Shown: piece by piece, positions 27,991-64,000 of the stretch
Layout of the letters: each line of letters starts with the position of its first letter
Position numbering within the stretch: the stretch's first letter is position 1
Source: a bacterium
Lineage (GTDB): Bacteria > Hydrothermota > UBA3073 > JACQXS01 > JAQTXJ01
Direction: 5' to 3'
DNA length: 64,000 nucleotides
Assembly (NCBI GenBank): GCA_028716385.1
Contig: JAQUPX010000001.1
Span: forward strand, 282,775 to 346,774
Position numbers and translations under genes: made by a program
Notes under the pieces: generated by a model
The model's database searches: none
The model's input: only the letters and a program-made list of their open reading frames with translations
What the model was told of the DNA's origin: nothing

Positions 27991-28073
27991 CAATCACTTT
28001 AAATGTATGTCAAGAGAATTGCAAGAAAAAATCCTAGTAAAATATTAGGATTTCTAGTAAAATATTAGTATCC
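27991..28073 (-). promoter_or_regulatory. promoter/operator module with tandem direct repeats (CTAGTAAAATATTAG x2), -35-like TTGACA and a TTTAAAGT box
   Basis: Minus-strand reading: TTTTACTAGAAATCCTAATATTTTACTAGGATTTTTTCTTGCAATTCTCTTGACATACATTTAAAGTGATTGC, just upstream of the RBS of the small ORF; about 80 percent identical to 61715-61794. Confidence 0.45.
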
Positions 28074-36040: not shown

Positions 36041-36048
36041 TTTATTTC

Positions 36049-38797: not shown

Positions 38798-38804
38798 AAT
38801 TTTC

Positions 38805-40268: not shown

Positions 40269-40275
40269 CTTTTCC

Positions 40276-43299: not shown

Positions 43300-43369
43300 T
43301 AAAATTATTAAAGCGTATGATTAAAAGGGGGAAATCCAGTGCCAAATCTGTGCCCATCCGTGCTTTGTA

Positions 43370-44197
43370 TCATTTCATTAATATTAGTTTCTTTGTCTCT
43401 TTTATATTCCCCGCACTTAACTTCACAAAATATACCCCGCTCTTTTTTATGTTCGGCGTAAATGTATAATCCCCTTTACTTAATGTGCCACTGTAAATAA
43501 CCTCTTTCGTTCTCCCGCATAAATCGTAAATTTTCAATTCCGCATTTATACTCTTTGGCGCGCTCAAATAAATCTTTCCTTTTATAATTTTCAAGTCAAC
43601 AGCTTGAAGCGAGGGCTTCAAGCTACCCTGTTCTTCTATCCCTACGACAGGAGTGCCTGTTATGGAAACATCGTCAATCCAAAAAGCGACAGAGTCAGTA
43701 TAACTTGAAGTACCGGGAGATTGTATATCTGCTCCGAATATAATTCCGGTTATAGTATCCTTATCAGTATAAATTCCTTGCCATTGTGTCCATACCAAGT
43801 TTTCCCCCATACCATACAGATAATCCCCCCTAGTCCATACTGTATCATTCTTTTTATTTATAAGGAGAATGATAGATATTTTGTTAACAGACATCGCAGG
43901 CGCATCGCACGAATATTGATACTGAATTTTGCATGTGCAAGATATTACGGGTTTTATCGTTTGGGACATAGTTATGCTACTGAACTGGCATGAAGGTTTA
44001 TATCCATAAGCATATACCTCGCAACTTGCCGGAGAGGAGTAATATTTTGTATAGCAAGGAGTTGCCCTCCCGCCACCGTGTGCTATTGTGGGCGACCAGC
44101 TCGTTACTCCCGAATTAAATCCACCGTTAGTTATCATCTCACTCGCAAACATAGATAACGGCACAATTAACATCAAACCTATCAATACCTTTTTCAT
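43370..44197 (-). CDS. secreted hypothetical protein with T9SS C-terminal tail
   Basis: 275 aa; signal-like N-terminus; C-terminal sorting tail. Confidence 0.5.
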   Translation of the reverse strand: MKKVLIGLMLIVPLSMFASEMITNGGFNSGVTSWSPTIAHGGGRATPCYTKYYSSPASCEVYAYGYKPSCQFSSITMSQTIKPVISCTCKIQYQYSCDAPAMSVNKISIILLINKKNDTVWTRGDYLYGMGENLVWTQWQGIYTDKDTITGIIFGADIQSPGTSSYTDSVAFWIDDVSITGTPVVGIEEQGSLKPSLQAVDLKIIKGKIYLSAPKSINAELKIYDLCGRTKEVIYSGTLSKGDYTFTPNIKKSGVYFVKLSAGNIKETKKLILMK

Positions 44198-44208
44198 AGT
44201 TTTTTCTC

Positions 44209-45618: not shown

Positions 45619-45724
45619 ATTGCCCCCCTATTTCAGTGGGTAGTTGGGAGCACGTGCTCCCAACGCTACCCTGTGTTTTCATTCTGTCATTGTCATCCCG
45701 CACTTGATGCGGGATCCATTGTTT

Positions 45725-46900: not shown

Positions 46901-46984
46901 ATTCTCTCCTTTATTAACCGGTATGTCGGTTAATAACACCCATCAACAACAAAAGTCAAACATTTTAATTTGTACGATGCAAGC

Positions 46985-48770: not shown

Positions 48771-50516
48771 TCATTTTAATGGATTTGCTCCCCGATTTAT
48801 CAAAGCGTTGTAATATTTGTTTCGTCGGCAAAGTTCCTCGTGTGTTCCCGTATCTATTAAACTGCCCTCTGCCAACACAATAATTTCGTCTGCCAACTTT
48901 GCAACTGACGGGTGATGTGTTATGAAAATAACGATTCTATCCTTGAAACTATTCAATACATTTTGGAGCACTTTTTTCTCTGTTTCGGAATCCAATGAAG
49001 CCGTCGCTTCATCAAGCACTACGATGTCCCCGCCTTTTAAAAACATCCGCGCAAGTATGATTCGCTGGATTTGCCCCTCGCTTAGACCGAGCCCGTTTTC
49101 CCCAAGATAAGTGTTGTATCCCGATTTTGTTTCTTTGATAAATTCGTTTGCCGTTGCCAGAATGGATGCCTGCTCTATCCCACTCTCATCCGTTGTGGTT
49201 TTCGCAATCCGTATATTATCGGAAATGCTTTCGGAAAAAATGAAATCCGAAATCGAAGCAATGCTTATTCGTGACCTGATATAATCAACAGGCAACTTTT
49301 CATACGCAATATTATTGATGAGATATTGTCCTTTCTGAGGAGAATAAAGACCGGCAAGTATATTCGCAATCGTGGACTTTCCCGCTCCCGAACTTCCTAC
49401 TAAGGCATACACCCGCCCGGCAACGCACTCAAACGTAATCTCTTGTAAAGCAACCGTCTTATCGGGATAAGCATAACTTATATTGTCTAACTTAATTTGT
49501 GTTATCCTGTTCGGTAAAACTGTATTTTGCTGTAAGTCGTTGGATTCTGATGGCATCAAAAGATATTCCTGTAAACGTTTTATCGTGCCTTCAATAATAG
49601 GTAATTTGCCTCCGACATTGATTACATTAGTAAACGACCCTATAAATCGACTAGAATATAAATCAAGCGCTATCCATTGTCCTATCGTCATATTCCCTTT
49701 CAATACTAAATATCCACCGAACAAAAAAACCAATAATGTTGGCAGATACTCTAAAAACAATTCCTGGAATAAAGAGGGGTAATACTCGGCAACGGAGAGC
49801 TTAACGCTTTTGTTAATGTAATCCGTATATCGTTTTTTATATGTTTCCATACGGAATTTATGCGCGAGCCATAATTTAAGCGAGCGAAGTCCGGCAAGCG
49901 TTTCATAGCGAAAAGTTTCTATATCGCACGCCTGGTCGCGAACCGCAAAAACCTGCTCACGCATCCGGTCATAGTATTTCCCTATGAAAAAATATAACGG
50001 AAAGAAGACAACCGCTATAATAACGGCAATCCAGATATTTACCGTTAGCGCATAAACGATTGCCCATATTGCGGTAACTATCTGGCTGACTAAACGGGAA
50101 CTAATATGTTCATAAAAATTCATTACGCTTTCGGTATCTTTTTTAATTCTGTTCGCATGGAAACTGCCGGGTTTTTGCCCGAGCGATTGCACGGATACGT
50201 CCAGAATTTTACTCAGTATTTGATTGTCCAATGCGCAGGTTAAAGTAAGTTTCACCCGCCCCTGCAATAGCGTAATAATATATTGCGCAAGAAGAATCCC
50301 TCCAATATTCAGCGCCAGAACCCCGACAAACGGATACAACATAGCAAGGCTTTTACTCGGGACGATGGTATCGATAAAATATTTCGCATAAAGGGGCAGC
50401 GCCATATAAAGGCAATCCAGTATTATCTGTAAGATTACTATTAACAGCGTTTTGTTTCCCTGTGTAGAGATAAGACTTTTATAAAACGCCGTTATTTTAC
50501 GAATGTCGTTTATCAT
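48771..50516 (-). CDS. ABC exporter, fused permease-ATPase
   Basis: 581 aa; hydrophobic N-terminal half; Walker A GSSGAGKST; signature LSEGQIQRIILARMF; Walker B VVLDEATASLD. Confidence 0.8.
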   Translation of the reverse strand: MINDIRKITAFYKSLISTQGNKTLLIVILQIILDCLYMALPLYAKYFIDTIVPSKSLAMLYPFVGVLALNIGGILLAQYIITLLQGRVKLTLTCALDNQILSKILDVSVQSLGQKPGSFHANRIKKDTESVMNFYEHISSRLVSQIVTAIWAIVYALTVNIWIAVIIAVVFFPLYFFIGKYYDRMREQVFAVRDQACDIETFRYETLAGLRSLKLWLAHKFRMETYKKRYTDYINKSVKLSVAEYYPSLFQELFLEYLPTLLVFLFGGYLVLKGNMTIGQWIALDLYSSRFIGSFTNVINVGGKLPIIEGTIKRLQEYLLMPSESNDLQQNTVLPNRITQIKLDNISYAYPDKTVALQEITFECVAGRVYALVGSSGAGKSTIANILAGLYSPQKGQYLINNIAYEKLPVDYIRSRISIASISDFIFSESISDNIRIAKTTTDESGIEQASILATANEFIKETKSGYNTYLGENGLGLSEGQIQRIILARMFLKGGDIVVLDEATASLDSETEKKVLQNVLNSFKDRIVIFITHHPSVAKLADEIIVLAEGSLIDTGTHEELCRRNKYYNALINRGANPLK

Positions 50517-50553
50517 AATTACTTACGAAATATAACTATTTCAGGATTATTTT

Positions 50554-51993
50554 TTAGACAAGATATTTATTAAGTCTTGCAATAAAAGGTTCAAAAAAGA
50601 AATCCTTGATTCCCATACTTTGTAAAATTTCAAATAGAGTATGTTTTTTCCCGATTTTCCAAAGGTTTTTCAAAAAATTACCTGCCGCAGGATCATTAAA
50701 CCATTTCTCCCCATAATTTTTTTCAAGATAAGCAGAGAAAACGGGTTCAAATAACGCAGATTTTATATAGTTTATGATTTCAAACGCCGGATCAATGCTT
50801 CTCAAATACATAGCTTCCGGGAATTCTCCCTTACACGCATTAGACAAAATGTTTTTATAAAGCTCGCCCTTCCCTTTTAATTCTTCTGTTTTACGAAGCT
50901 CAATTTCGTAAATAAACTCGGCAGCCCATTGACGCAAAAGGGAAAGGTCGCGGAAAAACATTAATCGCAAAAACTTTTCAGGTTTCTTTATGCCTAATGC
51001 GGAAAACAACCAATGCGGATTATAAATAAGATGATCAAATGTTGCGGCAAATCCCTCTTCGACTGAATTATCCCCCAATCGCATATACTCAAAAGGAGTA
51101 TGTTCATCCATATGTATATTTGAAAGGGCATGCCCCAATTCATGCAGAAATGCTCCATAAGTTCTGTATGATATTCCCAATGGGGCAATAACTAAAAAGA
51201 TTTTAGAAGGAATTTCAATCGGCGCACAAAAACCGTTCCCTGCTTTTTTCTCTCTCGTGTCTGTGTCAAACTTAATATTATTTTCTCCACTATAACCTAT
51301 ATCCATATCTTCAAGTAATTTTTTAATAATATTAACCATTGCGTCTTCAGGAAACAAAGAACTGAAAGTCTCAGGTTTTCCGTACTCTATCTTAATTGCT
51401 TTATCATAAATATCTTGAGTTTTTTTCAAAAAGTCTTGCATTGACTCCGAAAGTTTGTATAAATCTATACCACTAATAGTCTGAAACATAGAAATGTAAT
51501 TACTAAATCCCAGCTCTTCGGGTATTTTCATTGTTCTTTTATGAATATCCTCAAGAGACGGATTAATTTTATCCATAATTTTTATTTTCTCTTCCGTCCA
51601 CCAGGTTTTTAAGTATGAATTTTTATTGCTCATCATTTCTATTTGAGCAGCATAATAGGAAACCTTTCTTCCATCAGGAAAAATAACTGTAGCATCGGAT
51701 TCTATGTTGTCGGCATTATCATTAAGTTCTTTTACTTGCATTTGTTCATAATTATTAATAAGAAATTCAAGAATATACCGGATGCTTTTTTTCTCTTCTT
51801 CTCCCGCTTTATTCATAAACTCTATTACGGATTCTATTGTTTCTTTTGAACTCAAAACACTATATTTTTCGTATATTGCAGAAAAATTACTTTCGTCTTT
51901 CTGCCCGGACCATACGAGATATCTTTCCTGATATATTTCTCTAAAAAACTCTTCCCCTTTTTCTCTGATTGTTTGCACACTGATTTTTAACAT
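50554..51993 (-). CDS. zinc metallopeptidase (HExxH gluzincin-type; family not resolved)
   Basis: 479 aa; FLHELGHAL followed by a downstream Glu (EEGFAATF); no signal peptide seen. Confidence 0.55.
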   Translation of the reverse strand: MLKISVQTIREKGEEFFREIYQERYLVWSGQKDESNFSAIYEKYSVLSSKETIESVIEFMNKAGEEEKKSIRYILEFLINNYEQMQVKELNDNADNIESDATVIFPDGRKVSYYAAQIEMMSNKNSYLKTWWTEEKIKIMDKINPSLEDIHKRTMKIPEELGFSNYISMFQTISGIDLYKLSESMQDFLKKTQDIYDKAIKIEYGKPETFSSLFPEDAMVNIIKKLLEDMDIGYSGENNIKFDTDTREKKAGNGFCAPIEIPSKIFLVIAPLGISYRTYGAFLHELGHALSNIHMDEHTPFEYMRLGDNSVEEGFAATFDHLIYNPHWLFSALGIKKPEKFLRLMFFRDLSLLRQWAAEFIYEIELRKTEELKGKGELYKNILSNACKGEFPEAMYLRSIDPAFEIINYIKSALFEPVFSAYLEKNYGEKWFNDPAAGNFLKNLWKIGKKHTLFEILQSMGIKDFFFEPFIARLNKYLV

Positions 51994-52067
51994 TACTTCC
52001 CTCCCGGGATTTTCAATTAATTGTTTTTACAAAAATTGCAACTACAAGTGCCCCAGCCTACCCAACT

Positions 52068-52634
52068 TTATTTACAAAGCGCATCCTTCATTTCCTTTTC
52101 TATGTCAAAAACATTTTCTGACGTTAAAAGAACATTCGCCGTCTTTCCCTCTTTTAATTCTACGAGAATATACCAAACAAAAGTAATACCCTCTGTTGTC
52201 GTTCTCATTTTTGTAACTATCCATTTTTTTGCGCCCGGTTTCGGAACACCGTAAGACGTTTCCCCGAATCCGTTCATCCCGCCTTTCTTTGTCTCCCCTA
52301 TGAGTAAATCAATATCCGTTCCCTTAACCTTTGCGAAACATCCATCCCACAAAGCTCCCCATTTTAAAAGAGTGTCTTCCCTGCACTTTCCTTCCGATAG
52401 CCATTTTCTATACTTAATTTTGTTTTCTTTGAGTTTGTATCTCAATGCCGGTAGCGGGTCTTTATCAAATATTGCAAATTGCACAACATTAGGTTCTAAA
52501 GAGGTAGCGCCTAAACTTACAAATATCCCATATGCTTTTTGCAAGCCTGTTTCTAAGTATTCTATTTCAGTACTCGCTTTAACTTCTACCGTTATCCACC
52601 CCGTTATTACTAAAATCCATATCCACTTTTTCAT
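52068..52634 (-). CDS. secreted hypothetical protein
   Basis: 188 aa; signal-like MKKWIWILVITGWITVEVKAS. Confidence 0.45.
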   Translation of the reverse strand: MKKWIWILVITGWITVEVKASTEIEYLETGLQKAYGIFVSLGATSLEPNVVQFAIFDKDPLPALRYKLKENKIKYRKWLSEGKCREDTLLKWGALWDGCFAKVKGTDIDLLIGETKKGGMNGFGETSYGVPKPGAKKWIVTKMRTTTEGITFVWYILVELKEGKTANVLLTSENVFDIEKEMKDALCK

Positions 52635-52718
52635 ATTTTCTCCCTTCCAAAATATTCATAACTACTTAATCAAATATAACTAATTTTTTCAATTGTCAAA
52701 GGATATGATACCAACTTG

Positions 52719-53192
52719 TTAGTCCATCTTTGCGCCTTTGCGACTTAGCGTGAGATATTCTGTTATTTTTTCCATCTCTTTTTGAAACTCGGCAATTGGT
52801 TCTCTATAAGACGCTTTTAACAGAATCTTTCCTTCCCGGTTTACAAAAATTTTCGCAGGCGTCTCCTCGAACCCAAGTTTTTTCTTTGCCGATAAGTCCT
52901 TATCGAACAAAACAAGAAAATTGATTTTGGCATTCCTGACCCAGTCCACTAATTCTCTTTCGCTCACGTGATACGCAATCCCGATTACCCGGATATTTTC
53001 GTCTTTGGCAATCTCCGGCCAGACCCACCGTTCTGCAATGCAAGGCAAACTATCAAGTAACGAGAAATAAATAAACAACGTATGCTTTTTTTCTTTCAGT
53101 AGTTCCGAAACGTTTCTTTCTTTTCCCGTTAAATCGGGCAGCGAAAAAAACGGAATGCAAGATTCTTTGTTTTTCATTATATATTCATACAA
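52719..53192 (-). CDS. thioredoxin-fold (redoxin/TlpA-like) protein
   Basis: 157 aa; weak resemblance to redoxin-family proteins (ETPAKIFVNREGKIL) with a single Cys in LDSLPCIAERW; no CxxC; start overlaps upstream gene by 16 nt. Confidence 0.4.
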   Translation of the reverse strand: MYEYIMKNKESCIPFFSLPDLTGKERNVSELLKEKKHTLFIYFSLLDSLPCIAERWVWPEIAKDENIRVIGIAYHVSERELVDWVRNAKINFLVLFDKDLSAKKKLGFEETPAKIFVNREGKILLKASYREPIAEFQKEMEKITEYLTLSRKGAKMD

Positions 53193-54100
53193 TACTTTAC
53201 AATAAAATACTTCTGCGAATCTTCGGTTTTTTCTTCCCTGAGAAAATACACGAACCCGTTTTCATCCGCGCAAAGTAATTTGTCATTTGTCTTAAAATTG
53301 CCAACGAATTTTCCGCCTATAGTCCAAACGTCTATTACGTATTTTTCTTTAATTTCTTCTACCAAATCATTCATATTCAATTGTAAAAAAATCAGTTTGT
53401 CTTTTGGAGAGGTGCATATTTTTATTACTTGTGTCCAGGAACGTGCCCATTTTTCTATGTTGCCTTCCATACAGTTCCCGGGATATTTCAGTTTAGGGGA
53501 AACAAAATATTCAGGCTCTTCCCCCAAAGTTCTTATTAACTTACCCTCTAAACTATATTCCCAAATCTTATAATCACCTACTTGAACGACAAACAAACTA
53601 TCCTTATATAAATCAAAAAATACTCCCAGTATTTCAAAATCTATGGAAGTTGGGCTTTTAGGGCAGAATGAATATAGAAATTCGCCCCTTAAAGAAAGAG
53701 TATGTATGTAAGTTTGTGTAGCAGGATTTGATGCTCCCGCGAATATAAGTTCTTTTGCAACCCGTATTGTAAATGGTTGTGTATGGTATTCCGTAAAGAT
53801 AAAAGAATTGGTGAGTTCCCCGTCAGGACTGAAAGCGCTTAACCTTCTTATGGCGTGGTCGGTTATATAAAAATTTCCTTTTTCGTCTTTTGTTATTGCG
53901 TTCGGCAGTTGAAACTCTCCCGGCTTCAATCCTTCTTTTCCTATCGTTTTGATTAGTTTCCCGTCTTTGTTGAATATCAAAAATCGTTTGCCGTGCATAT
54001 CCGTTATCCCAAATCTTCCTTGCGAATCCACTACCATACCCGTTAAAGATAACGTTTGCGTTTCTAAAGGAATAATCGTTTTCAAGTTAAAAATATCCAT
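53177..54100 (-). CDS. NHL-type / six-bladed beta-propeller repeat protein
   Basis: 307 aa; repeated GxxxLxxPxGITxDxxGxxYITD-like units (GRFGITDMHGKRFLIFN, FQLPNAITKDEKGNFYITDH). Confidence 0.5.
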   Translation of the reverse strand: MDIFNLKTIIPLETQTLSLTGMVVDSQGRFGITDMHGKRFLIFNKDGKLIKTIGKEGLKPGEFQLPNAITKDEKGNFYITDHAIRRLSAFSPDGELTNSFIFTEYHTQPFTIRVAKELIFAGASNPATQTYIHTLSLRGEFLYSFCPKSPTSIDFEILGVFFDLYKDSLFVVQVGDYKIWEYSLEGKLIRTLGEEPEYFVSPKLKYPGNCMEGNIEKWARSWTQVIKICTSPKDKLIFLQLNMNDLVEEIKEKYVIDVWTIGGKFVGNFKTNDKLLCADENGFVYFLREEKTEDSQKYFIVKYCMNI

Positions 54101-54307
54101 AACAATATAGTTTTCTCCCTATTGGGTAGATAGGGCTTTAATGCCCTATCTTATTCTATGATATTCTTAATCAAATATAACTATTTTTTTCAATTGTCAA
54201 AGAATATGGTACCAACTTCTAATCCGTTTTTGTAAATTACCCCGTCCTTTAGGGCGGGGGCGTGAACCTAAAACAAAATATTTTCTTGGGCTTTAGCCCG
54301 AAATTAC

Positions 54308-55042
54308 CTACCTTTTCTGACAAATAAATATCGCCCGCGTTGTTTCCGCATCTACCTTTTTATCTTTTTTGTCTTCCACATCCCATACCTCTTTTATCGT
54401 AAACCCGCTTTTTTCAATCAAAGAACTTATCTCCGCAACTTCATAGCGTCTCTGGATGTGTGTTTCTTTATACGCTTTTCCCTTGAAGTTTAGAATAAGG
54501 TCCAGCGTCTTTATTTTTGTCGTCTCGTTGTAAGATGGAGATATTGTCACTCCAAAAGTATCAAACTTCGCATTAAATTTCACCGAGAATTTTTTCCCCT
54601 GGTATGGAGTAGTTATGTCAAATATGAAGTGTCCGTTTTCGTTTAGGCGGGCATACACATTATTGAAAACCTTTGTCATATCTTTTCTCAGGAGAATATA
54701 ATTTATGGCGTCAAAGTTACAGGTTGCCAAATCGAAGTAATCACGGAGTTGAATTTCTCTCATATCCCGGACAAAAAAATTACATAAGAGGCGTTGTTTT
54801 TTCGTTTTTATTTTTGCTAAACGTATCATTTCGGGAGACGAATCTATCCCCGTTCCCGTCCATCCGTTCTTTACCATTTCCAGAAGAAACGTTCCTGTCC
54901 CGCACCCGATATCCAGAAGTTTTTTGTTGTTTCCCGTTGTTGAACCGAAATAATCGTTGAGTAGTTTTATGGTTACTTGGTGTAACTCTTTGTATAAAAC
55001 ATCATACACCTGCGAGAGATATTTGTAAGGATTATTTAACAT
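54308..55042 (-). CDS. class I SAM-dependent methyltransferase
   Basis: 244 aa; motif I LLDIGCGTGTF; architecture parallels the methyltransferase at 28273-29046. Confidence 0.7.
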   Translation of the reverse strand: MLNNPYKYLSQVYDVLYKELHQVTIKLLNDYFGSTTGNNKKLLDIGCGTGTFLLEMVKNGWTGTGIDSSPEMIRLAKIKTKKQRLLCNFFVRDMREIQLRDYFDLATCNFDAINYILLRKDMTKVFNNVYARLNENGHFIFDITTPYQGKKFSVKFNAKFDTFGVTISPSYNETTKIKTLDLILNFKGKAYKETHIQRRYEVAEISSLIEKSGFTIKEVWDVEDKKDKKVDAETTRAIFICQKR

Positions 55043-55288
55043 TGTTTTTTATTCTTGTGTTTTATCATAAAACATATTCTTTGTCAAAGATATTCAGGAC
55101 GGAAATTTAAAAAACGTCTTCCCGCCGGTTTGCCTATTAGTAGGTAAAATTGTAGGGGCGACTCGCCGAGTCGCCAGTTTACAATGCCTGAGCCGGGTAT
55201 GATTTTCTAAAACAAAAGCCCTCCCCGAATAACGGGGAGGGCTTCTGCGTTATTATCTGTGTCTATCCTTGTCCATCTGTGTTTTGTA

Positions 55289-58200
55289 TCATTTCATCAA
55301 TATGAGTTTCTTTGTCTCTTTGTATTCACCAGCTTTAAACTTCGCAAAGTATATACCCGTCGGATAGTTCCTTGATTCAAGAGTTTCCTTGTAACAACCC
55401 GGTACTTTCTCTCCATCTACCAATGTCTTTATGCATCGTCCTGTAAGGTCGTAAAGTTTTAAAGAAACTTTGCTAGTTTTCGGTAGTGAATATTGAATCG
55501 TTGTTCTGTCCCTAAATGGATTAGGATAATTTTGATAGAGCTTGAATACAAGCGGTTTAGACATAGTTCCTTGCGATCCGCCGCTTCCAAGTTCAGCTCT
55601 GCAAATCTTTCCTTCGCCCCCATCTGTCGCATTATCAGGACCTATTCCTTGAGTTACCAAAACATTTCCCGTGAAAGTCTCTACATTTCTTATAAGTGCG
55701 ATTCTCCCGCCTGCCGATCCACCACCGTCCGCTTGTGTATTATTTGCTCCGTCATTTCCTTTTGCTTCTATGTTCCCTTCACCTTTTAATGAATCACAGC
55801 TTATAAAAATCGAGCCACCGCTTCCGGCACCGCCTGCATATCCACTTGCATATTTATATCCAGCTTCTCCATTTACTGAAACTACTCCGTCAATTGTTAT
55901 CACATTTGCTGAAAGTTTTAATCTTCCTCCACCGGAACCTCCCGGGGCTACTGTATAGTTATTTCCAGCGCCTCCGCCGGAACCAAGAGATGTAGGATTA
56001 AGAGAATCTGCTTCACCATAAGCAACTCCACCGGATATTCCGCTTTCTCCGTTTCCCCCTGTGTTTCCGTAACCTGCTCCGCCGGCACCCGCTCCATTCA
56101 ATCCGTTTGTGCCTTTCCCGGTTCCGTTTGATGTTAAATAGCCTTTTTTATCTGCACTTATCACTGCTCCCGAACCGACAGTTATCTCATTTGCTATAAT
56201 AGAAGCATTACCTAATACGGAATCTCCGGAATCAAGCTGGAATTTTACATTGCTGAAACTTGCTCCGTTAACAAACGAAAGCCTGTCATGTGAGCCTATT
56301 GTCGTATTTACCGGAGAAACAAGCAATTCTACGTTTCCGTTAGATTGAGCTACTTTTATTATTCCGCTCTGTCCGTCTTGTGCCTTATCCGGATAAATAG
56401 AGCCTGCCCCAACGCCACCGCTTGCCAATAACTTTCCACTAAAAGATGAATTCCTGTAATCAATTTGAAGCCTTCCCGCGCTTCCGCCTCCACCCTGTGC
56501 TGTGCTTCTATATGCGCCATTTCCTCCGTTTGTTTCTGCAATTCCGCTCCCTGCAATTGAATCGCAAGTTATCCAAATTGAACCTGCTCCACCGCCACCG
56601 CCGGCATAAGACGAGCCGCCTGCTTCTCCATCCGTTCCATTAGATTCTATTTTCCCTGAAAGCGTTAATGTCGCTGTTGAGAGTTTAATTAAACCGCCTC
56701 CTGCTCCACCCCAAGCCGAATAAGAGCTTCCGTTTCCGCCACCACAGCCAAGGTAAGCCATTGGAGAAAGAGTATCAGGATAAGCGGCTCCGCCTGATAT
56801 TTCTGTTTCTCCTAAACCGCCTTGCCCACAGCACGCTCCACCGCCTGCGCCTGCACCATTTGTGCCATTTGTGCCTTTGCCCGGTCCACTGGCTTTCGGA
56901 TTTCCCTTGCCTGTAGAGCTTAAAGTTCCTAATAGTTGCATTGTTTGAGCTTCCACGTCTATGATACCTGTAGTAGAATCAGTGCCATTAAATGCAACGC
57001 TATTCATCGTAGCGCCTGAATTTATCTTAAATAAGTTTATGTTATAATGTCTACCTGAAACGAGTCTTGTGCTGTCCGTTGTCCATACCCAATCAGTCCC
57101 GCCGTGATTTGTTCCACCAAGTCCTACGCTTAACTGGAAGTGACGCACTCCACCTGCACCTGAATTATAAACATAGTTTGGATTAGTGCGTAAGTTCTGT
57201 GTAGCCCCATTCCCAAGATCAAGCAAATATATGCCGTATCCCGAAGGCACATCGGACGGTAAAATGTTAAGTGTTATATTTTCGTTTGATTTATCCGTAT
57301 TGACTTCAAAGTTCCATACCATTGTGGAATCCGTAAGGTCAACCGTTTCTCTTACATCCTGACAGAACTTATCTCCTAAAGGATGATTCCATTCGGAATG
57401 AGGAAAATAGAGGTGTACATAATTGGAAGGGGGAGTAGAATATTTTGGAATGTCATATCCTTCGTCACAACTGTCAGAAGCTTCTCCAAGCACTCCTGCG
57501 TAATTTGAAATATCTTCGGCAAAGTTGGAAGTTGCTTTGACCTGGAGTTTCCAGTCGAGAGGTAGAATAGTTTTTATCGGCATAAAAGTACTATATCCGG
57601 AAACGGTACCTGCTATGGTAGCGGAATCGCTGTTCTCCCAGTAATTATTCTGAGCGATAATCGTATCTCCGGATGTGTTTACAAAATTCCATAACCCATT
57701 AGCATAAATGTTATTATTCCCGGGATTGTATTCCGCATTGGAATAAGTAGCATTACCAAAATTAATTCCTGTTCCTGTATTGGTAAATACTCCAATTGAG
57801 TCATTCGCAACTATTGTATTTTCCCTGCCGAGTAGGGAGGAATTATATGCTTTTATACCTATTCTGTTATGATGAATCGTACTTTTCCATACTTCCCCGT
57901 AAGGTGAATTATCATAGAGAATTCCGGCTTGTTTACAATTCTCTATTTCAAAACCACGTATTGTAATGTACTGTTTATTGCTTACATTAAATCCATAATC
58001 CCTTGTATTGTCTCCGGTAATGACAACTCTTTCTCCTTCGGCAGCAAGATAAACAATTCTTCCGTCGTCGGGATCTCCTGCGTTTTGGGGAGTTACGGTC
58101 TCGTGATAAGTGCCACCCTTTACGATAACGGCTTCACCGGGTTGAAGAGTGTTAGCGGCTTTTTGAATAGTTGCCCATGGTGATGTTTCAGTCCCCGAAT

Positions 58201-61200
58201 TCCCATCGTTACCGCCATTGCAATTCACGTATTTTACGGATTTGTATGTGATATAAGGCACAGGCGTACTCCATGGACCAATATTGCCAGACCTATCTAT
58301 TGCACAAACAGCATAATAATACATCCAGTCGACTGGCGCCCACTCATACCATGTCCTTTGAATAGGAGAAAATGTTGTAGCTAGATTAAACGTGTTTGGC
58401 GAGTTACTCGCACTCACAAAATAGCCGCCTAAATACGGTTCATGGTTAGATTCGCCAGTACCTGCCTCTGTAAATGGAGTAGCATCCCACACACAACGAA
58501 TAATGCCACCTCTGCCTCTAAAGAAAGACACGCCTGTTACCTGAGGAGGCTTCAAGATATTATTAGCACCGGTTTTTACAAAACTACCAGAAGGAGGCGG
58601 TGTTTCACTAAAAGAAGCAGGCTCTGAAGGTATTTCATTGGTGCCAACAGCATTAACCGCTCTAATTGCATAATAATAATCCCGTCCAACCTCACCGGTA
58701 AAGTCCTGGTAATTCAGCCCCGATGTGTTGCCAATATATTCATAATCTCCGTTACTGCTTACTTCCGAACGATAAATATAATATTCTAGGGCATAGGGAA
58801 CGGAGTTCCAACTTATAAAACCACTTTTTTCACCATGGTCTATGGGATAAGGAATACGTGACATTACGCTAGGTGCAATAGGCCTATTAGTAATAGGCAT
58901 TAATCCCCATGGTCTGGATTTGGCAGGCCCAATCCAGAATTGTGCTCGGTTTTCCCCCCCGTCATCCCATATGACTTTTACTTTGTACCAATATGGAATG
59001 TTAAAACAAACAGTATTATCCGTATACCCATAGAAATTAAAGCCGTTGTTTGTCGCATTAATTACACTGCCCGGAACCTCTTCAAACGGACCTTCCTCGC
59101 ATATACTGCGATATACAATATACTTAGTTATCTTATCGCTTACACCGCTTGTCCATGTTTCTTCTCCGGTAATCCAGCCTATGCTGACACCTCCTTCATA
59201 CCCTTCTGCCCAAATATTACCTAACAATGGAGCATAATACCTGCCAAGGAGTGTACCTTCTTCAACGTCTATGTTTGGACGTCTTCCTCCGGAATATGCC
59301 ATCCAGCCTTTTTCGCCGTTACTGCATACACAATAAAGATCATTATTCTTTAAGAAATATTCATGTTCCCATTCTGCATATGTTTTGTAAATTGCATCTG
59401 ATGTGCCAACGTAGAATGTTCCTTTCTCGCCGCCGCCGATACTTCCATATTTAACATCAGTGAACCATGTAGGATACATTATCCTGCCGTCAAAATTAAT
59501 ATCTACTGAAGTCGAATTCCACGCAGAGCCGGAACTTGCCCCAACCCCTCCCGTGGAAATTCCCATTATTGCGTCGTCTATAGCTCCGCCTGATCCTGTA
59601 ATTCCAAAATTTGCATGTCTGACATCTGCCCAGTTGACAGGAGCGTTTACCCAATCACTTTGTCCCCAACCCCAGGGATACGGATTATGTCCCGGTTCAT
59701 CATTCCTGAATGTATTAAAAGATGCAGCAGTTGTCTCATTCCATTTGGTCCAAGTTATGCCTCCATTCTTTGTCTGCGCCACACACCCTCTGTTGTCCGT
59801 TGTTATCCAAACGTTATTGCCAAGCAGATTGTTTTTGTCTACCCATATACCTCTTACACAGTCGGAAAAATGCTCTGGTGTGTTTGGGACGGGTTTTGTA
59901 GTTATATTTGCCTTCCAAGTTTGTCCAAAATCTACTGATTTTAATACATATCCTCCGGATGCTCCTATGTATCCAACCTGGTCATTTGCAAAATCCACAC
60001 AATAGAAAGCAAGGTTATTATTGTCTGCACCCACTATATTATCCGAATATAAAAAAGATTGCCCTCCTCCTGTTTTTTCAAGTTTTGCTATAATTCCTCG
60101 CACACCTGTATAAGTTATATCCGTGCTTACTTTTACATTTGTCCCTACGACATATGCATAGTCCTGCGTCTCGCATACTCCATAAAAATCCCAATCATTT
60201 CCACAACCCGTTACCGGGGTCCACTTTGAATATGCATCTTTTTTTAAGATTAATCCTTTATCTCCAACTGCATAGTTTTCACTAACTGCTCTTATAATTT
60301 GGTTATTGGAACCAAAATCCGGCTGTTGATTAAACCAACCGGAAGTAAATAAAGGGTCAAGTTTGTCGTCAAAAATAAATAAGCCGAAAGTATTACTATA
60401 AGAACCAGGTAGTGCTATTTCTAAATCACCATCGTTATCTATATCCCCTATTGCAAGCTCATGAATAGTAGTACCTATGGATAAAGTGTACGCGGTTTCC
60501 CATAAAAAACTTCCGTCATAATTAAGGCAAAGAAGACAATATTTTAACGCAACAAACGGATCTAGAGAAATAATTATTTCTGGGTTAGGAGTTAGGTCAT
60601 TTATATTGGCAACCGTTATAGAAAGACTTGTTGTAGCGATGCCGGTTAAAGCATAAGTCCATTTGAAGCTACCATCATGATATAAAGAATAAATTTGAGT
60701 CCCAGACGCAAAAATTATTTCATCATAAGGATTGTTGTCTATATTCGCTATTGCCGGGGAAGAAATAATTCTGTTTCCTGTTGTATAACTCCATCTGCAA
60801 GAACCATTTGTGTTTAACAGATATACTTTGTTATCATCCGAACCGGCTACTATTTCCAAAGTGGAGTTATTATTATCTATATCCGTTATTGCCGGGGAAA
60901 ACCTTACTTTGTCTCCTGTTGCATAATTCCATCTGCAAGAACCATTTGCATTTAATACGTATACATTGTTGTCATAAGAGCCGACCACTATTTCTAAAGC
61001 AGTGTTATTATTATCTATATCCGCTATTGCCGGGGAAGATTCTACGTCGCCTCCTGTTGCATAAGTCCATCTAAAAGAACCATTTGCATTTAATACATAT
61101 ACATTGTTATCATCAGAGCCGAATACTATTTCTAAAGGACCGTTATTATTATCTATATCCGTTATTGCCGGGGAAGATTCTATTTTATCTCCTGTTGGAG

Positions 61201-61642
61201 TCGAATAAGACCATAAACAATTGCCATCATGGTCAAGGGCATAAATTTTGCCATCCCAACTTCCAAAAACTATCTCAAGATCACCATCTCCGTTTATGTC
61301 TCCTACTGCCGGGGCAGAGGATACACCCTCCCATGGACTGGTGGGTGCATAATTCCAAAGGTCACTGCCATTATGGTCTATCGCATATACCCTTCCTTCA
61401 AAATTTACCATAGATTGCGCATTGTAAGTTCCAAGTATTGTTTCTAAATATCCATCCCCATTAATATCCGCAAGAACTCCTCCCGATTTAGCCGTGAGCG
61501 TATTTAAACGAGCAGTTTTAAATATCGGTGCAGTACTCATTTTCCCTGTTCCAATATTCTGGAAATTTGTATTACGTAAATCATGCCCATGCTTAGGCCA
61601 TGCCGAAAGACTCATTACTGCTAAAAGATAAACATACCACAT
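55289..61642 (-). CDS. giant multi-domain surface protein (propeller repeats, beta-helix, Gly-rich repeats) with T9SS C-terminal tail
   Basis: 2117 aa; AAGGAGGT 5 nt upstream; N-terminal IDNNNxxLEIVxGSDDNxVYVLNxNGS repeats; central pectate-lyase-like block; Gly-rich GGxGxxG segments; C-terminal LKLYDLTGRCIKTL...GIYFAKFKAGEYKETKKLILMK. Confidence 0.7.
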   Translation of the reverse strand: MWYVYLLAVMSLSAWPKHGHDLRNTNFQNIGTGKMSTAPIFKTARLNTLTAKSGGVLADINGDGYLETILGTYNAQSMVNFEGRVYAIDHNGSDLWNYAPTSPWEGVSSAPAVGDINGDGDLEIVFGSWDGKIYALDHDGNCLWSYSTPTGDKIESSPAITDIDNNNGPLEIVFGSDDNNVYVLNANGSFRWTYATGGDVESSPAIADIDNNNTALEIVVGSYDNNVYVLNANGSCRWNYATGDKVRFSPAITDIDNNNSTLEIVAGSDDNKVYLLNTNGSCRWSYTTGNRIISSPAIANIDNNPYDEIIFASGTQIYSLYHDGSFKWTYALTGIATTSLSITVANINDLTPNPEIIISLDPFVALKYCLLCLNYDGSFLWETAYTLSIGTTIHELAIGDIDNDGDLEIALPGSYSNTFGLFIFDDKLDPLFTSGWFNQQPDFGSNNQIIRAVSENYAVGDKGLILKKDAYSKWTPVTGCGNDWDFYGVCETQDYAYVVGTNVKVSTDITYTGVRGIIAKLEKTGGGQSFLYSDNIVGADNNNLAFYCVDFANDQVGYIGASGGYVLKSVDFGQTWKANITTKPVPNTPEHFSDCVRGIWVDKNNLLGNNVWITTDNRGCVAQTKNGGITWTKWNETTAASFNTFRNDEPGHNPYPWGWGQSDWVNAPVNWADVRHANFGITGSGGAIDDAIMGISTGGVGASSGSAWNSTSVDINFDGRIMYPTWFTDVKYGSIGGGEKGTFYVGTSDAIYKTYAEWEHEYFLKNNDLYCVCSNGEKGWMAYSGGRRPNIDVEEGTLLGRYYAPLLGNIWAEGYEGGVSIGWITGEETWTSGVSDKITKYIVYRSICEEGPFEEVPGSVINATNNGFNFYGYTDNTVCFNIPYWYKVKVIWDDGGENRAQFWIGPAKSRPWGLMPITNRPIAPSVMSRIPYPIDHGEKSGFISWNSVPYALEYYIYRSEVSSNGDYEYIGNTSGLNYQDFTGEVGRDYYYAIRAVNAVGTNEIPSEPASFSETPPPSGSFVKTGANNILKPPQVTGVSFFRGRGGIIRCVWDATPFTEAGTGESNHEPYLGGYFVSASNSPNTFNLATTFSPIQRTWYEWAPVDWMYYYAVCAIDRSGNIGPWSTPVPYITYKSVKYVNCNGGNDGNSGTETSPWATIQKAANTLQPGEAVIVKGGTYHETVTPQNAGDPDDGRIVYLAAEGERVVITGDNTRDYGFNVSNKQYITIRGFEIENCKQAGILYDNSPYGEVWKSTIHHNRIGIKAYNSSLLGRENTIVANDSIGVFTNTGTGINFGNATYSNAEYNPGNNNIYANGLWNFVNTSGDTIIAQNNYWENSDSATIAGTVSGYSTFMPIKTILPLDWKLQVKATSNFAEDISNYAGVLGEASDSCDEGYDIPKYSTPPSNYVHLYFPHSEWNHPLGDKFCQDVRETVDLTDSTMVWNFEVNTDKSNENITLNILPSDVPSGYGIYLLDLGNGATQNLRTNPNYVYNSGAGGVRHFQLSVGLGGTNHGGTDWVWTTDSTRLVSGRHYNINLFKINSGATMNSVAFNGTDSTTGIIDVEAQTMQLLGTLSSTGKGNPKASGPGKGTNGTNGAGAGGGACCGQGGLGETEISGGAAYPDTLSPMAYLGCGGGNGSSYSAWGGAGGGLIKLSTATLTLSGKIESNGTDGEAGGSSYAGGGGGAGSIWITCDSIAGSGIAETNGGNGAYRSTAQGGGGSAGRLQIDYRNSSFSGKLLASGGVGAGSIYPDKAQDGQSGIIKVAQSNGNVELLVSPVNTTIGSHDRLSFVNGASFSNVKFQLDSGDSVLGNASIIANEITVGSGAVISADKKGYLTSNGTGKGTNGLNGAGAGGAGYGNTGGNGESGISGGVAYGEADSLNPTSLGSGGGAGNNYTVAPGGSGGGRLKLSANVITIDGVVSVNGEAGYKYASGYAGGAGSGGSIFISCDSLKGEGNIEAKGNDGANNTQADGGGSAGGRIALIRNVETFTGNVLVTQGIGPDNATDGGEGKICRAELGSGGSQGTMSKPLVFKLYQNYPNPFRDRTTIQYSLPKTSKVSLKLYDLTGRCIKTLVDGEKVPGCYKETLESRNYPTGIYFAKFKAGEYKETKKLILMK

Positions 61643-61714
61643 CTTACCTCCTTTGCTCTAATAAAGAGCAAGCTACCTTACAAAAAATTATCTCCTCTTC
61701 TTCTTTATAAAAAA

Positions 61715-61794
61715 CAGTTTACTTTAAATATAGATTAATGCTTTTGCAATAAAAAATCCTAGTAAAATATTAGTATTTCTAGTAAAATCTTAAC
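61715..61794 (-). promoter_or_regulatory. promoter/operator module homologous to 27991-28073 (tandem CTAGTAAAAT repeats, TTGCAA, TTTAAAGT)
   Basis: Minus-strand reading: TTTTACTAGAAATACTAATATTTTACTAGGATTTTTTATTGCAAAAGCATTAATCTATATTTAAAGTAAACTG, about 75-150 nt upstream of the giant-protein ATG. Confidence 0.45.
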
Positions 61795-61822
61795 ATTTTT
61801 AGTTGGAGTTTCCGGCCTTGGC

Positions 61823-61915
61823 GGGATTACTCCAACTTATCAGTGTTTCTGATTAGTTAGAGTTTGCGATTCGCTCGTTACTCCAACTTATCAGTGTTTC
61901 TGATTAGTTAGAGTT
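61823..61915. repeat. tandem direct repeat of ~53-bp nested-palindrome element (TTACTCCAACTTATCAGTGTTTCTGATTAGTTAGAGTT x2)
   Basis: Two adjacent copies read directly; related single copies near 33185-33245 and 9100-9185; AGTTGG and CCAACT arms flank GC-rich inner hairpins. Confidence 0.5.
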
Positions 61916-62037
61916 TTATTCCTGAAATATTCGGTTTTTTAAAATTGTTTCGGGGGAAATGTAAGCTATTTAATTGAGGATAAACAAAAAGCCCTTCCCA
62001 TCACTGGGAAGGGCTTCAAATTAACTTTTTTTATTAA

Positions 62038-64000
62038 CTACTTCATCAATATCAGTTTCTTTGTTTCTTTATAATCCCCTGCCTTAAACTTCGCAAAGTA
62101 TATACCCGTCGGATAGTCTTTTGAATTCAGTTCCGCTTTGTAATATCCCGGTAGTTGTTCCTCATCTACTAACGTCTTTACACATCTGCCGGTTAAATCA
62201 TAAAGCATTAACGATACTTTACTCGTTAAAGGTATCTGGTACTTTATAGTCGTCTTATTCCTGAATGGATTCGGATAATTCTGGAACATCTTAAACACAA
62301 ACGGCAATCCCGCATTGTTCACATAAGATACAGGTGTGAAATTCTGCAAGAGTTTTTCCTTTAAAAACGTTCCCGTATCTCCCGGTGTTGCGCCAGTTCC
62401 TCCGGAATCTCCACCCACTACGTATACTGAAATTGTGTGTGTAGTGTCAAGGCTGTCCGTGTAAAATATTACTCTTCCGCCTGCACCTCCACCTGCTTTA
62501 CAGTTGGATATAGTTCCGCCGTTTCCGCCTCTCGCGTTTACGACTCCACTTCCTTTCAGGCATTTTGCGTAGATTAAGATACTTCCGCCGCTGGCTCCGC
62601 CGCCTGCATAACCGGTCTGTGACGTTCCGTTGCTTCCTTTTACGGATAACGTTCCGTCAAGCACTATCGTTCCGGCATCGCATTCAAGCTCAATTGCTCC
62701 ACCACCGTTTCCGCCGCCGTATCTGTATCCCGAGACGTTTGCAAAGTCTCCGCCGCCGCTTCCCAAACTATCCGGCATAAAAGAATCAGGATATGCAATT
62801 CCGCCGTCTCCGACTCCACCCTGTGTATGATAACTTCCCCATCCGCCTAAATTACCGTATCCCGCTCCGCCTGCTCCGTGTGAGCTTGAGCCGGTATGTC
62901 CGTAACCGGTCCCCTGGTTATGGGCATATCCTTTTTCATCTGCCAGGATATAAGAGGAGGTGTTTACTATAATAGAGTCTCTTGCTCTTGCCCTGAAGTT
63001 TCCTACTATACTATCTCCGCTTGTTAATCTTATATATTTATCCGTGAATTCAATTCCTTTTACAAAACCGTATCTGCTATCAGTCGAGCTGAATGTCTGC
63101 ACGGGAGATAAGATAATCTTTACCGAATCATCCGTCTGGTGAATCAATGCCGTTCCCATCTGTCCTGTCTGTGCATTGTCATAAGCAAGTCCACCCGACA
63201 CATCCACTCTTCCCGTAAACGAAGATTGTTGATACCAGACGTTCAATCTTCCGCCTGAGCCGCCGCCACCGTCAGCTGTCCCATTTGCTCCGTTTCCACC
63301 TTTACAGGACACAAGTCCGTTTCCTGTTAATTTATTAGTCTGTAGCCATACAGAGCCGCCTGCTCCTCCACCTGCTGCTTTGTTGCCTGATCCGGAGCCT
63401 GTTTTCCCGTCACTCTTGATTGTTCCTGCTACGTTTATAGTTCCTGAAGATATTAATCTGATAATTCCTCCGCCTGCTCCGCCTTTGTATGCAAGAGTTA
63501 CGTCGGAGTTACCTCCACCGCTTCCAAGGTCACATGGGTTTTCCAAATTGCCATAAGCAAACCCGCCGTATTTACTTGTATCGCCTTGTAAGTTACAACC
63601 ACCTGCTCCACCTCTGCCTCCATATCCAGCACCGCCTGCTCCGTATGCAGATGCGCCCATAGTGCCTGCTCCTGTGCCTTCGCCTGCCAGGTAACCTGCA
63701 GAGTCTGCCGAGAATGTGCCTTCAATGTCAAAGCTATCGGCTTCTATTGCAATCCAGCCGGTAGTATTGATTGATTTCGGTGCGACTTTTGCGGTCTTAC
63801 CGCTGTTGATTTTAAATGTCCCTACATTCCAGTAAGTGCCGTAGATTGTGGTGTCATTGGCGATTGTCCAGTCAGCATCCTTTAAGTCTATTCCGAAAGG
63901 CTCTCTTACTATTTTTCCTATTAGCTTTAATGAATCGGTATTGAAACTGCCCCAGTAATTTGCCTGTGCCATTATGCTGTCTTGTGTGTTGTTGAATAAA
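62038..64000 (-). CDS. Gly-rich beta-helix-like surface protein with T9SS C-terminal tail (5' end probably beyond window)
   Basis: Frame stays open upstream of the first Met (63972) to the window edge; no signal peptide at that Met; Gly-rich repeats resemble the giant protein; C-terminal LMLYDLTGRCVKTL...GIYFAKFKAGDYKETKKLILMK. Confidence 0.6.
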   Translation of the reverse strand, partial: LFNNTQDSIMAQANYWGSFNTDSLKLIGKIVREPFGIDLKDADWTIANDTTIYGTYWNVGTFKINSGKTAKVAPKSINTTGWIAIEADSFDIEGTFSADSAGYLAGEGTGAGTMGASAYGAGGAGYGGRGGAGGCNLQGDTSKYGGFAYGNLENPCDLGSGGGNSDVTLAYKGGAGGGIIRLISSGTINVAGTIKSDGKTGSGSGNKAAGGGAGGSVWLQTNKLTGNGLVSCKGGNGANGTADGGGGSGGRLNVWYQQSSFTGRVDVSGGLAYDNAQTGQMGTALIHQTDDSVKIILSPVQTFSSTDSRYGFVKGIEFTDKYIRLTSGDSIVGNFRARARDSIIVNTSSYILADEKGYAHNQGTGYGHTGSSSHGAGGAGYGNLGGWGSYHTQGGVGDGGIAYPDSFMPDSLGSGGGDFANVSGYRYGGGNGGGAIELECDAGTIVLDGTLSVKGSNGTSQTGYAGGGASGGSILIYAKCLKGSGVVNARGGNGGTISNCKAGGGAGGRVIFYTDSLDTTHTISVYVVGGDSGGTGATPGDTGTFLKEKLLQNFTPVSYVNNAGLPFVFKMFQNYPNPFRNKTTIKYQIPLTSKVSLMLYDLTGRCVKTLVDEEQLPGYYKAELNSKDYPTGIYFAKFKAGDYKETKKLILMK

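Follow-up and report, generated by a model that had tools for sequence, protein, structure and literature searches.

Large multi-domain T9SS cargo is common in the FCB group and in related candidate phyla. At peptide and bacteriocin promoters, response regulators of the ComE, AgrA and PlnC type activate from direct-repeat sites. Described T9SS cargo with a type A C-terminal domain (type A-CTD) includes the gingipains of P. gingivalis and the secreted enzymes of F. johnsoniae (PMC10202324, PMC12618676). A literature search on T9SS in Stahlbacteria, AgmC or glycine-rich gliding proteins found nothing specific.

We analysed a window of 64,000 nucleotides from an uncultivated bacterium, with Stahlbacteria/WOR-3-like MAGs as its nearest named relatives. 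At the end of this window lie two genes on the minus strand, here called the giant gene and the edge gene. It is fairly probable that both encode large modular T9SS cargo, in which glycine-rich units serve as a stalk. Given how common large T9SS cargo is, the gene pair itself is unremarkable. The giant gene comprises the following features:

55289..61642, minus strand: giant gene, 2117 aa, identical to NCBI MDD5528694.1
61598..61642, minus strand: hydrophobic N-terminus MWYVYLLAVMSLSAW, putative Sec signal peptide (read from the sequence)
60353..61597, minus strand: FG-GAP/PQQ-like beta-propeller, aa ~16-430 (Pfam)
59243..60352, minus strand: BNR/Asp-box motif region, aa 431-800 (sub-threshold profile and PDB sequence matches)
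58241..59242, minus strand: three Fn3-like modules, aa 801-1134 (one PDB sequence match)
57557..58240, minus strand: right-handed parallel beta-helix of the DUF1565/pectate-lyase type, aa 1135-1362 (Pfam and AlphaFold)
57095..57556, minus strand: orphan segment, aa 1363-1516, without detectable relative
56339..57094, minus strand: glycine-rich unit 1, predicted beta-helix, aa 1517-1768 (self-alignment)
55538..56338, minus strand: glycine-rich unit 2, predicted beta-helix, aa 1769-2035 (the unit modelled by AlphaFold)
55289..55537, minus strand: C-terminal T9SS sorting domain of type A (aa 2036-2117), followed by the stop codon (PF18962, TIGR04183)
55209..55245, minus strand: intrinsic terminator of the giant gene, GAAGCCCTCCCCG-TTAT-TCGGGGAGGGCTTTTGTTTT (read from the sequence; unlisted by the terminator scan)

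An earlier, sequence-only reading of this DNA had claimed a giant ORF of 2117 aa with propeller-type repeats, a pectate-lyase-like beta-helix and a T9SS tail, and all four elements were recovered. The frame stays open over 2117 uninterrupted codons, from an ATG start preceded by a strong ribosome-binding site (AAGGAGG). The gene of MDD5528694.1 is carried on a contig of 953,578 bp, and each of the other hits spans no more than 21% of the query. With a promoter and a terminator of its own, the giant gene appears to be monocistronic.

The T9SS tail scored above the curated cut-offs of both models, with 45.3 bits for PF18962 (Por_Secre_tail; cut-off 27) and 40.1 bits for TIGR04183 (cut-off 23). 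The sorting domain of the edge ORF likewise exceeded both cut-offs (43.4 and 45.6 bits, respectively). In total, 18 ORFs of the window carry a sorting domain, and hence such cargo makes up one of the major gene classes there. T9SS machinery genes were not found within the 64 kb. By analogy with type A cargo of Bacteroidota, the giant and edge proteins would leave the cytoplasm by Sec. T9SS would then read the C-terminal sorting domain and carry the protein over the outer membrane, where the sorting domain would be cleaved off and the new C-terminus anchored to the cell surface.

Profile searches with the whole giant protein placed two propeller families above their Pfam gathering scores, i.e. 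Beta-prop_CGLA (PF25292; 81.9 bits, cut-off 26.8) and FG-GAP_3 (PF13517; 51.2 bits, cut-off 26.9); PF13570 reached 114.5, under its cut-off of 133. The blades include a tandem array of 3.4 copies of 138 bp at 60731-61197, and the propeller part is 40% identical to the window ORFs at 17109-18596 and 29316-30824. The MWYVYLLAVMSLSAW-type N-terminus is also present in two stand-alone propeller paralogues of the window; on inspection of the sequence, a basic n-region was absent from this N-terminus in the giant. The NCBI name implies a PQQ-dependent enzyme. This assignment was rejected, as PF01011 (PQQ-dehydrogenase propeller) was unmatched in the giant at E <= 0.01 (Pfam); the name reflects repeat similarity only.

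The next two regions gave fewer matches. When aa 431-800 were searched as a segment, PSII_BNR was matched at E 8e-5, under its Pfam cut-off, and Ycf48-like PDB chains matched weakly at E 0.011; this region is possibly a second, Ycf48-like propeller, as these weak matches suggest. In aa 801-1134, the Fn3-like chain 3mpc_A matched aa 924-998 at E 4.7e-5, which covers the middle module only. Further Fn3-like PDB chains matched this region at E 0.016 or weaker, and Pfam fn3 was unmatched there at E <= 1.

As a separate segment, aa 1135-1362 exceeded the cut-offs of three Pfam families: Beta_helix (PF13229; 30.2 bits versus 25.9), DUF1565 (PF07602; 29.6 versus 20.3) and NosD (PF05048; 24.8 versus 23.6). 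Moreover, 36 homologues of this segment carry PF13229, PF07602 and/or PF22842, and AlphaFold was confident across aa ~1160-1270 (pLDDT 85-96). The mean pLDDT over aa 430-1520 of the giant was 42.4; outside the beta-helix it was ~30-45 and uninformative, because those parts have no alignable homologues. The orphan segment (aa 1363-1516) is missing from the edge ORF and from two paralogues, P0249 and P0250. Fold support is weak or absent for aa 431-1134 and 1363-1516, ~860 of the 2117 residues. The proposed division into discrete folded modules thus stands for the propeller, the beta-helix, the glycine-rich units and the sorting domain, and finds weak or no support in aa 431-800, 801-1134 and 1363-1516.

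The C-terminal part had been described as long blocks of GGxGxxG repeats. Its richness in glycine was confirmed (23.7% Gly in aa 1517-2035 versus 8.8-13.2% elsewhere among the modules of the giant), but not the run of short repeats. The literal motif has just four occurrences in the giant and five in the edge ORF; the true repeat is a unit of ~225-250 aa, present in two copies in each of the two proteins. The copies in the giant are 43% identical across 228 aa (E 2e-53). AlphaFold modelled unit 2 with a pLDDT of 85.6 and a pTM of 0.85, with strands every ~36 residues, and from this model the unit is confidently predicted to be a right-handed beta-helix. A Foldseek search of the PDB with this model returned no significant match (best E 2.6), and a profile of the unit had zero matches among PDB sequences. 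The model supports the fold class; a specific kinship with adhesins is unsupported by it.

Pfam lacks a model for the glycine-rich unit, and its NCBIfam match is weak. Even so, a great many large proteins contain it, with up to 12 matched stretches in each, and the source names include Bdellovibrio, Planctomycetota, Lentisphaerae and Patescibacteria. A family model of the unit would annotate many 'hypothetical' giants. It is also present in the edge gene, of which the window holds the following features:

62038..64000, minus strand: edge gene, 3' part, 653 aa visible, cut at the window end; includes the end of a beta-helix (aa 3-30), two glycine-rich units (aa 59-297 and aa 310-552) and a sorting domain of type A (aa 575-650)
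61988..62017, minus strand: intrinsic terminator of the edge gene, with a 13-bp stem

The frame at 62038..63999 on the minus strand is free of stops as far as the window end. Hence, the edge gene is 5'-truncated, with its 5' part beyond the window, as the sequence-only reading had held. Its claim that the edge ORF repeats the glycine-rich architecture also proved right: the ORF matches aa 1517-2117 of the giant with 43.9% identity in 626 aligned columns (E 8e-95). P0249 was considered as the full-length edge protein and rejected, because it is encoded by a separate gene of this contig, whose accession lies 43 numbers from that of the giant gene; it is therefore a proxy only for the architecture of the edge protein.

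The two units and the sorting domain together form a cassette that is found behind varied N-terminal heads (GH39-like, FG-GAP and other), including in one paralogue on the same contig. Cassette proteins are P0249 (1594 aa), P0250 (1809 aa, with an FG-GAP match), P0251 (1864 aa, with a GH39 match) and P0253 (1309 aa). Furthermore, P0121 is 90% identical to aa 1737-2117 of the giant and differs in its N-terminus of 155 aa. Because the cassette is kept behind differing heads, we read it as a surface stalk, and because the units directly precede the sorting domain, they would be the membrane-proximal part of the protein. The glycine-rich units may form a rigid stalk that keeps the N-terminal modules off the cell; the modules held out would be one or two propellers, Fn3-like spacers and the pectate-lyase-type beta-helix. 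A cassette with a variable head offers a testable idea on surface display in an uncultivated organism.

Upstream of the giant gene, and at one other site in the window, the following intergenic features were found:

61721..61792, minus strand: promoter module, giant copy, with direct repeats TAAGATTTTACTAG (61779-61792) and TAATATTTTACTAG (61759-61772) and hexamers TTGCAA (61744-61749) and TAAAGT (61721-61726), 17 nt apart
28019..28067, minus strand: promoter module, second copy, upstream of an ORF of 47 aa (27820-27963) and of a gene for a radical SAM/SPASM protein
61827..61916, minus strand: two 39-bp direct repeats, each with CAGAAACACTGATAAG, upstream of the giant promoter

In the promoter module, a 14-bp direct repeat with a spacing of 20 bp adjoins the -35 box, and the double operator has the pattern ATTTTACTAG-N6-TAATATTTTACTAG. 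A promoter module shared between the giant gene and a putative peptide operon had been proposed, and the comparison agrees with it. The similarity between the two copies reaches ~75 bp, and positions 61744-61788 and 28019-28063 are 95.6% identical across 45 bp (E 1.5e-15, within the window). Since the operator-like repeat and the core hexamers are common to the giant gene and the radical SAM/YcaO peptide operon, both promoters are probably switched by one DNA-binding regulator, from which we infer co-regulation of the giant gene with the peptide operon. Alternatively, the shared promoter could be merely duplicated DNA, copied along with gene rearrangements and without common regulation. Recently duplicated paralogues abound in the window, the terminators after the giant gene and the edge gene are likewise near-identical, and a DNA-binding regulator, including one of the LytTR type, was not found within the window. 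However, the similar stretch comprises just the operator-like repeats and both hexamers, with decay on either side, and the 14-mer occurs at these two promoters only, apart from two sites with two mismatches within coding sequence. We regard duplication without common regulation as a serious but somewhat unlikely alternative.

The double operator had zero exact matches in JGI metagenome contigs and was absent from the examined loci of a related MAG. Probable control by one regulator could be part of a wider scheme, in which the TAATATTTTACTAG operator would define a small regulon that switches on a large T9SS surface protein together with a peptide that is modified by radical SAM/YcaO enzymes and may be a secreted signal, and the cassette would be a general, unnamed stalk displaying interchangeable heads. 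We put this scheme forward as speculation with little confidence. If true, it would tie surface adhesion to the making of a peptide in a quorum-sensing-like way, within a candidate phylum. The shared operator also provides a testable idea on surface-protein regulation in an uncultivated organism. The only other repeat copies with CAGAAACACTGATAAG, at 33174 and 33238, are upstream of another T9SS gene. Rfam had zero matches in the whole window; hence, the intergenic repeats do not correspond to any known RNA.

The term 'adhesin-like' used for the giant protein reflects fold resemblance and architecture only. In function, the protein may bind, and possibly cleave, extracellular polysaccharide or bind other cells. 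One alternative to an adhesin is an enzyme, secreted or bound to the surface, whose main task is to degrade polysaccharide, with a catalytic beta-helix and the other modules in accessory binding or spacer roles. The beta-helix of the giant is within the pectate-lyase superfamily, and its homologues often carry glycosidase-associated Pfam families too; one of them, P0244, is named alpha-N-arabinofuranosidase by JGI. Among the cassette proteins, the paralogue P0251 matched GH39 with 30.3 bits (cut-off 26), and P0249 contains the sequence WETVNEPD, a motif that is typical of TIM barrels in clan GH-A, at a site where Pfam is silent. Against this, Pfam detected no catalytic family in the giant itself, and DUF1565 and Beta_helix are fold-level families without assigned activity. 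A mainly enzymatic role is unlikely on this evidence; it is compatible with T9SS export and a stalk.

It is very improbable that the giant is an adhesin for gliding motility, like SprB/RemA or AgmC, that travels along the cell surface. The sorting domain of the giant is type A (TIGR04183), whereas that of SprB is type B, and no gliding genes were found within the window. The matches to the AgmC N-terminal domain (NCBIfam NF047640) point towards gliding but are weak (18.9 bits for the giant and 40.6 for the edge ORF) and miss the cut-off of 275 bits; a further point in favour is that Flavobacterium gliding requires T9SS (PMC8986121). An assembly chimera, in which different T9SS paralogues were fused into the 2117-aa ORF via common repeats, is hardly credible: the genome is rich in paralogues whose sorting domains, propeller blades and glycine-rich units are nearly identical, P0121 has the same C-terminus on another head, and the sorting domain holds a break in an independent Logan assembly (its contig spans only window ~45.9-55.4 kb), but the 6.3-kb frame is open with a proper ribosome-binding site, promoter and terminator, it sits within the 953-kb contig, and aa 431-1516 have no window paralogue able to cause a false join.

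Both genes can thus be compared with known systems as probable modular T9SS cargo on a glycine-rich stalk. The Myxococcus AgmC N-terminal domain is the sole curated model resembling the unit (profile positions ~229-406). Only its C-terminal part was matched. The giant and edge proteins, at 19-41 bits, fail AgmC membership because their scores are far under the cut-off; among the 35 units that were aligned, 9 matched the model (best E 7e-11). Like RTX beta-rolls, the unit has glycine-rich turns inside a parallel beta structure. In contrast to RTX nonapeptides (GGxGxD), however, it spans ~225 aa with rungs of ~36 residues and a consensus without conserved Asp, and HemolysinCabind (PF00353), the criterion for an RTX beta-roll, was unmatched in the giant (Pfam). 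The beta-helical passengers of TPS and autotransporter adhesins (EtpA, HMW1, FHA, HxuA, UpaB, pertactin) resemble the unit in fold only: here export would be by T9SS, the coils are unusually rich in glycine (~24%), sequence similarity is absent and the Foldseek result was non-significant. Neither a TPS domain nor an autotransporter barrel was found in the giant or the edge ORF (Pfam, NCBIfam).

The promoter module shares with ComE, AgrA and PlnC sites a pair of direct repeats spaced by roughly two helical turns, immediately upstream of the -35 box, and one of its two promoters drives a modified-peptide operon; with a 14-bp repeat, a 20-bp period, another phylum and no LytTR in the window, the likeness is an analogy only. 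The closest comparison is with type A-CTD cargo. Although the host MAG is non-Bacteroidota-looking and the module order is unmatched in the other retrieved proteins, the locus shares with this cargo the PF18962/TIGR04183 tail, a large multi-domain passenger and the presence of many such genes per genome.

The giant protein and its paralogue at the window edge are modular T9SS cargo, a well-known kind of protein, and the sequence-only reading had described them largely correctly. The giant ORF (55289..61642, minus strand) is real: its 2117 codons start with an ATG preceded at the usual distance by AAGGAGG, and its product is identical to a single NCBI entry, MDD5528694.1, named 'MAG: PQQ-binding-like beta-propeller repeat protein [bacterium]' and carried on a contig of 953,578 bp. 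The edge ORF was rightly taken as a partial gene repeating the glycine-rich layout. The frame that ends at 62038 (minus strand) has no stop up to the final base of the window, so the window truncates the gene at the 5' end and leaves 653 residues of its product. These align with aa 1517-2117 of the giant protein (43.9% identity in 626 columns, E 8e-95). Edge residues 3-30 pair with the end of the giant protein's beta-helix (aa 1322-1347) and edge residue 43 pairs with giant residue 1517; the orphan segment of 150 aa is therefore missing from the edge protein.

Modules of the giant protein
aa ~16-430: FG-GAP/PQQ-like propeller (Beta-prop_CGLA 81.9 bits, FG-GAP_3 51.2 bits)
aa 431-800: BNR/Ycf48-like region (PSII_BNR E 8e-5, under the cut-off; Ycf48-like PDB chains E 0.011)
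aa 801-1134: three Fn3-like modules, assigned by eye
aa 1135-1362: DUF1565/pectate-lyase-type beta-helix (Beta_helix 30.2, DUF1565 29.6, NosD 24.8 bits, each over the cut-off)
aa 1363-1516: orphan segment
aa 1517-2035: two glycine-rich units
aa 2039-2114: type A T9SS sorting domain (PF18962 45.3 bits, TIGR04183 40.1 bits)

The proposed propeller, pectate-lyase-type beta-helix and sorting domain exceed Pfam cut-offs, while Pfam support is weak at aa 431-800 and absent at aa 801-1134, where no Pfam family matched. Among the Fn3-like modules, the solved Fn3-like protein 3mpc_A matches aa 924-998 alone (E 4.7e-5). The orphan segment has no relative in Pfam, PDB or a set of 5.8 billion proteins. 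For the beta-helix, 36 homologues were found and AlphaFold pLDDT reached 85-96 at aa ~1160-1270; elsewhere within aa 430-1520 it was ~30-45, in parts for which no alignment could be built, and these low values are not evidence against folding. The first 414 residues, including the N-terminus, are ~40% identical to two stand-alone propeller plus sorting-domain ORFs in the window (17109-18596 and 29316-30824). Three successive propeller blades are encoded by a tandem array of 138 bp x 3.4 (60731-61197, minus strand; 83% identical). The array points to recent duplication within the gene, and could be a place where the length varies or the assembly has gone wrong.

Sorting domains occur in 18 ORFs of the window, of which 11 lie within the minus-strand stretch 31698-48568, many of them with near-identical tails (…KIYDLCGR…ETKKLILMK). 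An ORF with Schlafen/AlbA_2, HATPase_c_4 and winged-helix domains (41872-43299, minus strand) is located within this array of T9SS paralogues. Elsewhere, a 726-aa protein (13545-15725, plus strand) carries a C-terminal Peptidase_S74 domain, the intramolecular chaperone of endosialidases and tail fibres.

The glycine-rich region was present as proposed (23.7% Gly at aa 1517-2035), but not as GGxGxxG repeats: the literal motif occurs in only 4 copies, and the region consists instead of two tandem copies of one unit (aa 1537-1768 and 1787-2028; mutual identity 43%), matched by a pair in the edge ORF (aa 59-297 and 310-552). A word-indexed search retrieved 92 proteins with one to three units each, nearly all 'hypothetical' and the majority without a precomputed Pfam domain; source names include Candidatus Stahlbacteria, Bdellovibrio, Planctomycetes/Phycisphaerales, Lentisphaerae, Patescibacteria and Nanoarchaeota. 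An exhaustive HMMER search of cluster representatives with the edge ORF gave 702 matches at E <= 1e-30, 52,744 at E <= 1e-10 and 202,796 at E <= 1e-3, the lower-scoring counts being upper bounds for the unit because some matches cover the sorting domain alone. The best 150 matches are nearly all >1000 aa, reaching 7134 aa, and a single protein can hold as many as 12 matched stretches. Conserved blocks in a 35-sequence alignment of the unit are GxGY..GPGxG, GGGYGGxGG, YGS..P..LGSGGG, GGxGGGAI, GGGSGGSIW and GGGGGGRIA. Foldseek returned no significant match for the unit, and its profile found no relative among PDB sequences. The AgmC N-terminal domain is the sole curated model with any similarity, scoring far under its cut-off. 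The unit is thus a beta-helix domain without a Pfam model or a qualifying NCBIfam model.

In the proteins most closely related to the edge ORF, the C-terminal cassette of two units plus sorting domain is retained and the upstream part differs.

Relatives of the edge ORF (length, identity, head)
P0249: 1594 aa, 90%, TIM-barrel-like start with WETVNEPD, BNR-like region, beta-helix
P0250: 1809 aa, 66%, FG-GAP, beta-helix
P0251: 1864 aa, 56%, GH39 match and Ig-like domain
P0253: 1309 aa, 54%, no family recognised

P0249 (MDD5528737.1) lies on the giant gene's contig, outside the window and 43 accession numbers away, and is therefore a third cassette paralogue of this genome; that distance from the giant gene led us to reject it as the edge gene itself. 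P0121 (JGI/Logan/ENA; 535 aa on a 2.2-kb contig) shares 90% identity with giant aa 1737-2117, and an unrelated FG-GAP-like head of 155 aa is joined to this part within unit 1; P0121 represents either natural shuffling or an artefact of assembly.

Terminators and the peptide operon (all minus strand)
61988-62017: terminator of the edge gene, 13-bp stem
55209-55245: terminator of the giant gene, read from sequence
27820-27963: 47-aa ORF
26367-27731: radical SAM/SPASM gene
24652-26370: ABC transporter
22315-24177: YcaO gene

With terminators after both the edge gene and the giant gene, the latter appears to be a single-gene transcription unit. The two terminators are very similar, almost one sequence (GAAGCCCTyCCC…GGGrAGGGCTTTTTGTTT), which suggests that the 3' ends were duplicated along with the cassette. 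A promoter module common to the giant gene and the RiPP-like cluster (22315-28067) was borne out. Some 75 bp upstream of the giant gene recur before the 47-aa ORF: TAATATTTTACTAG twice with a 20-bp period (a single mismatch in one copy at the giant promoter), then TTGCAA, a 17-nt spacer and TAAAGT. At <=1 mismatch, the 14-mer TAATATTTTACTAG occurs in the window solely at these two promoters. Co-regulation of giant gene and peptide operon is plausible; plain duplication of a promoter segment is a possible alternative source of the likeness. The operator was not found in JGI metagenome contigs or in related loci, and no DNA-binding regulator was found in the window. A signalling cluster (9377-13130, plus strand) encodes a receiver, four SpoIIAA-like (STAS)/DUF7793 proteins, a PAS histidine kinase and a second receiver, with receiver, STAS and kinase domains only and no DNA-binding output domain.

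The 16-mer CAGRAACACTGATAAG has four window sites only, in two minus-strand pairs: 61836/61887, inside direct repeats of 39 bp that precede the giant gene's promoter, and 33174/33238, upstream of the RCC1-repeat T9SS ORF 31698-33131. Four matches were reached in 0/100 shuffles, and Rfam gave no match. A 7-bp hairpin (TTGCTCT-TTATT-AGAGCAA; 61650-61680, minus strand) lies in the giant gene's 5' UTR, immediately before the Shine-Dalgarno sequence. A SAM methyltransferase gene (28273-29199) lies just upstream of the RiPP-like cluster. Downstream of the giant gene, 48771-55042 (minus strand) encodes a SAM methyltransferase, a DUF5128 six-bladed propeller, an AhpC/TSA-like protein, an ABC transporter and two ORFs without any family; these genes may form a second peptide-related cluster, and their order is reproduced in an independent Logan assembly contig.

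The giant protein's sorting domain, module order and cassette conservation are directly established. By analogy with known T9SS cargo, it would be exported by Sec, translocated by the T9SS, relieved of its type A domain and attached to the surface (PMC10202324, PMC12618676). In this geometry the two beta-helix units would be the membrane-proximal part, a rigid stalk displaying the propellers, Fn3-like spacers and pectate-lyase-type helix. Its activity would most likely be binding or cleavage of extracellular polysaccharide; the main rival reading is a purely enzymatic role for the protein. Features that exceed ordinary annotation are the glycine-rich beta-helix unit, widespread yet unmodelled, its place in a conserved cassette of stalk plus tail, and the operator common to the giant gene and the peptide operon.

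Direct repeats that lie beside the -35 box with a spacing of two helical turns are bound by activators, response regulators among them, and the repeats at the two promoters appear similar in layout to such sites. The likeness of the unit to adhesin stalks is one of shape alone.
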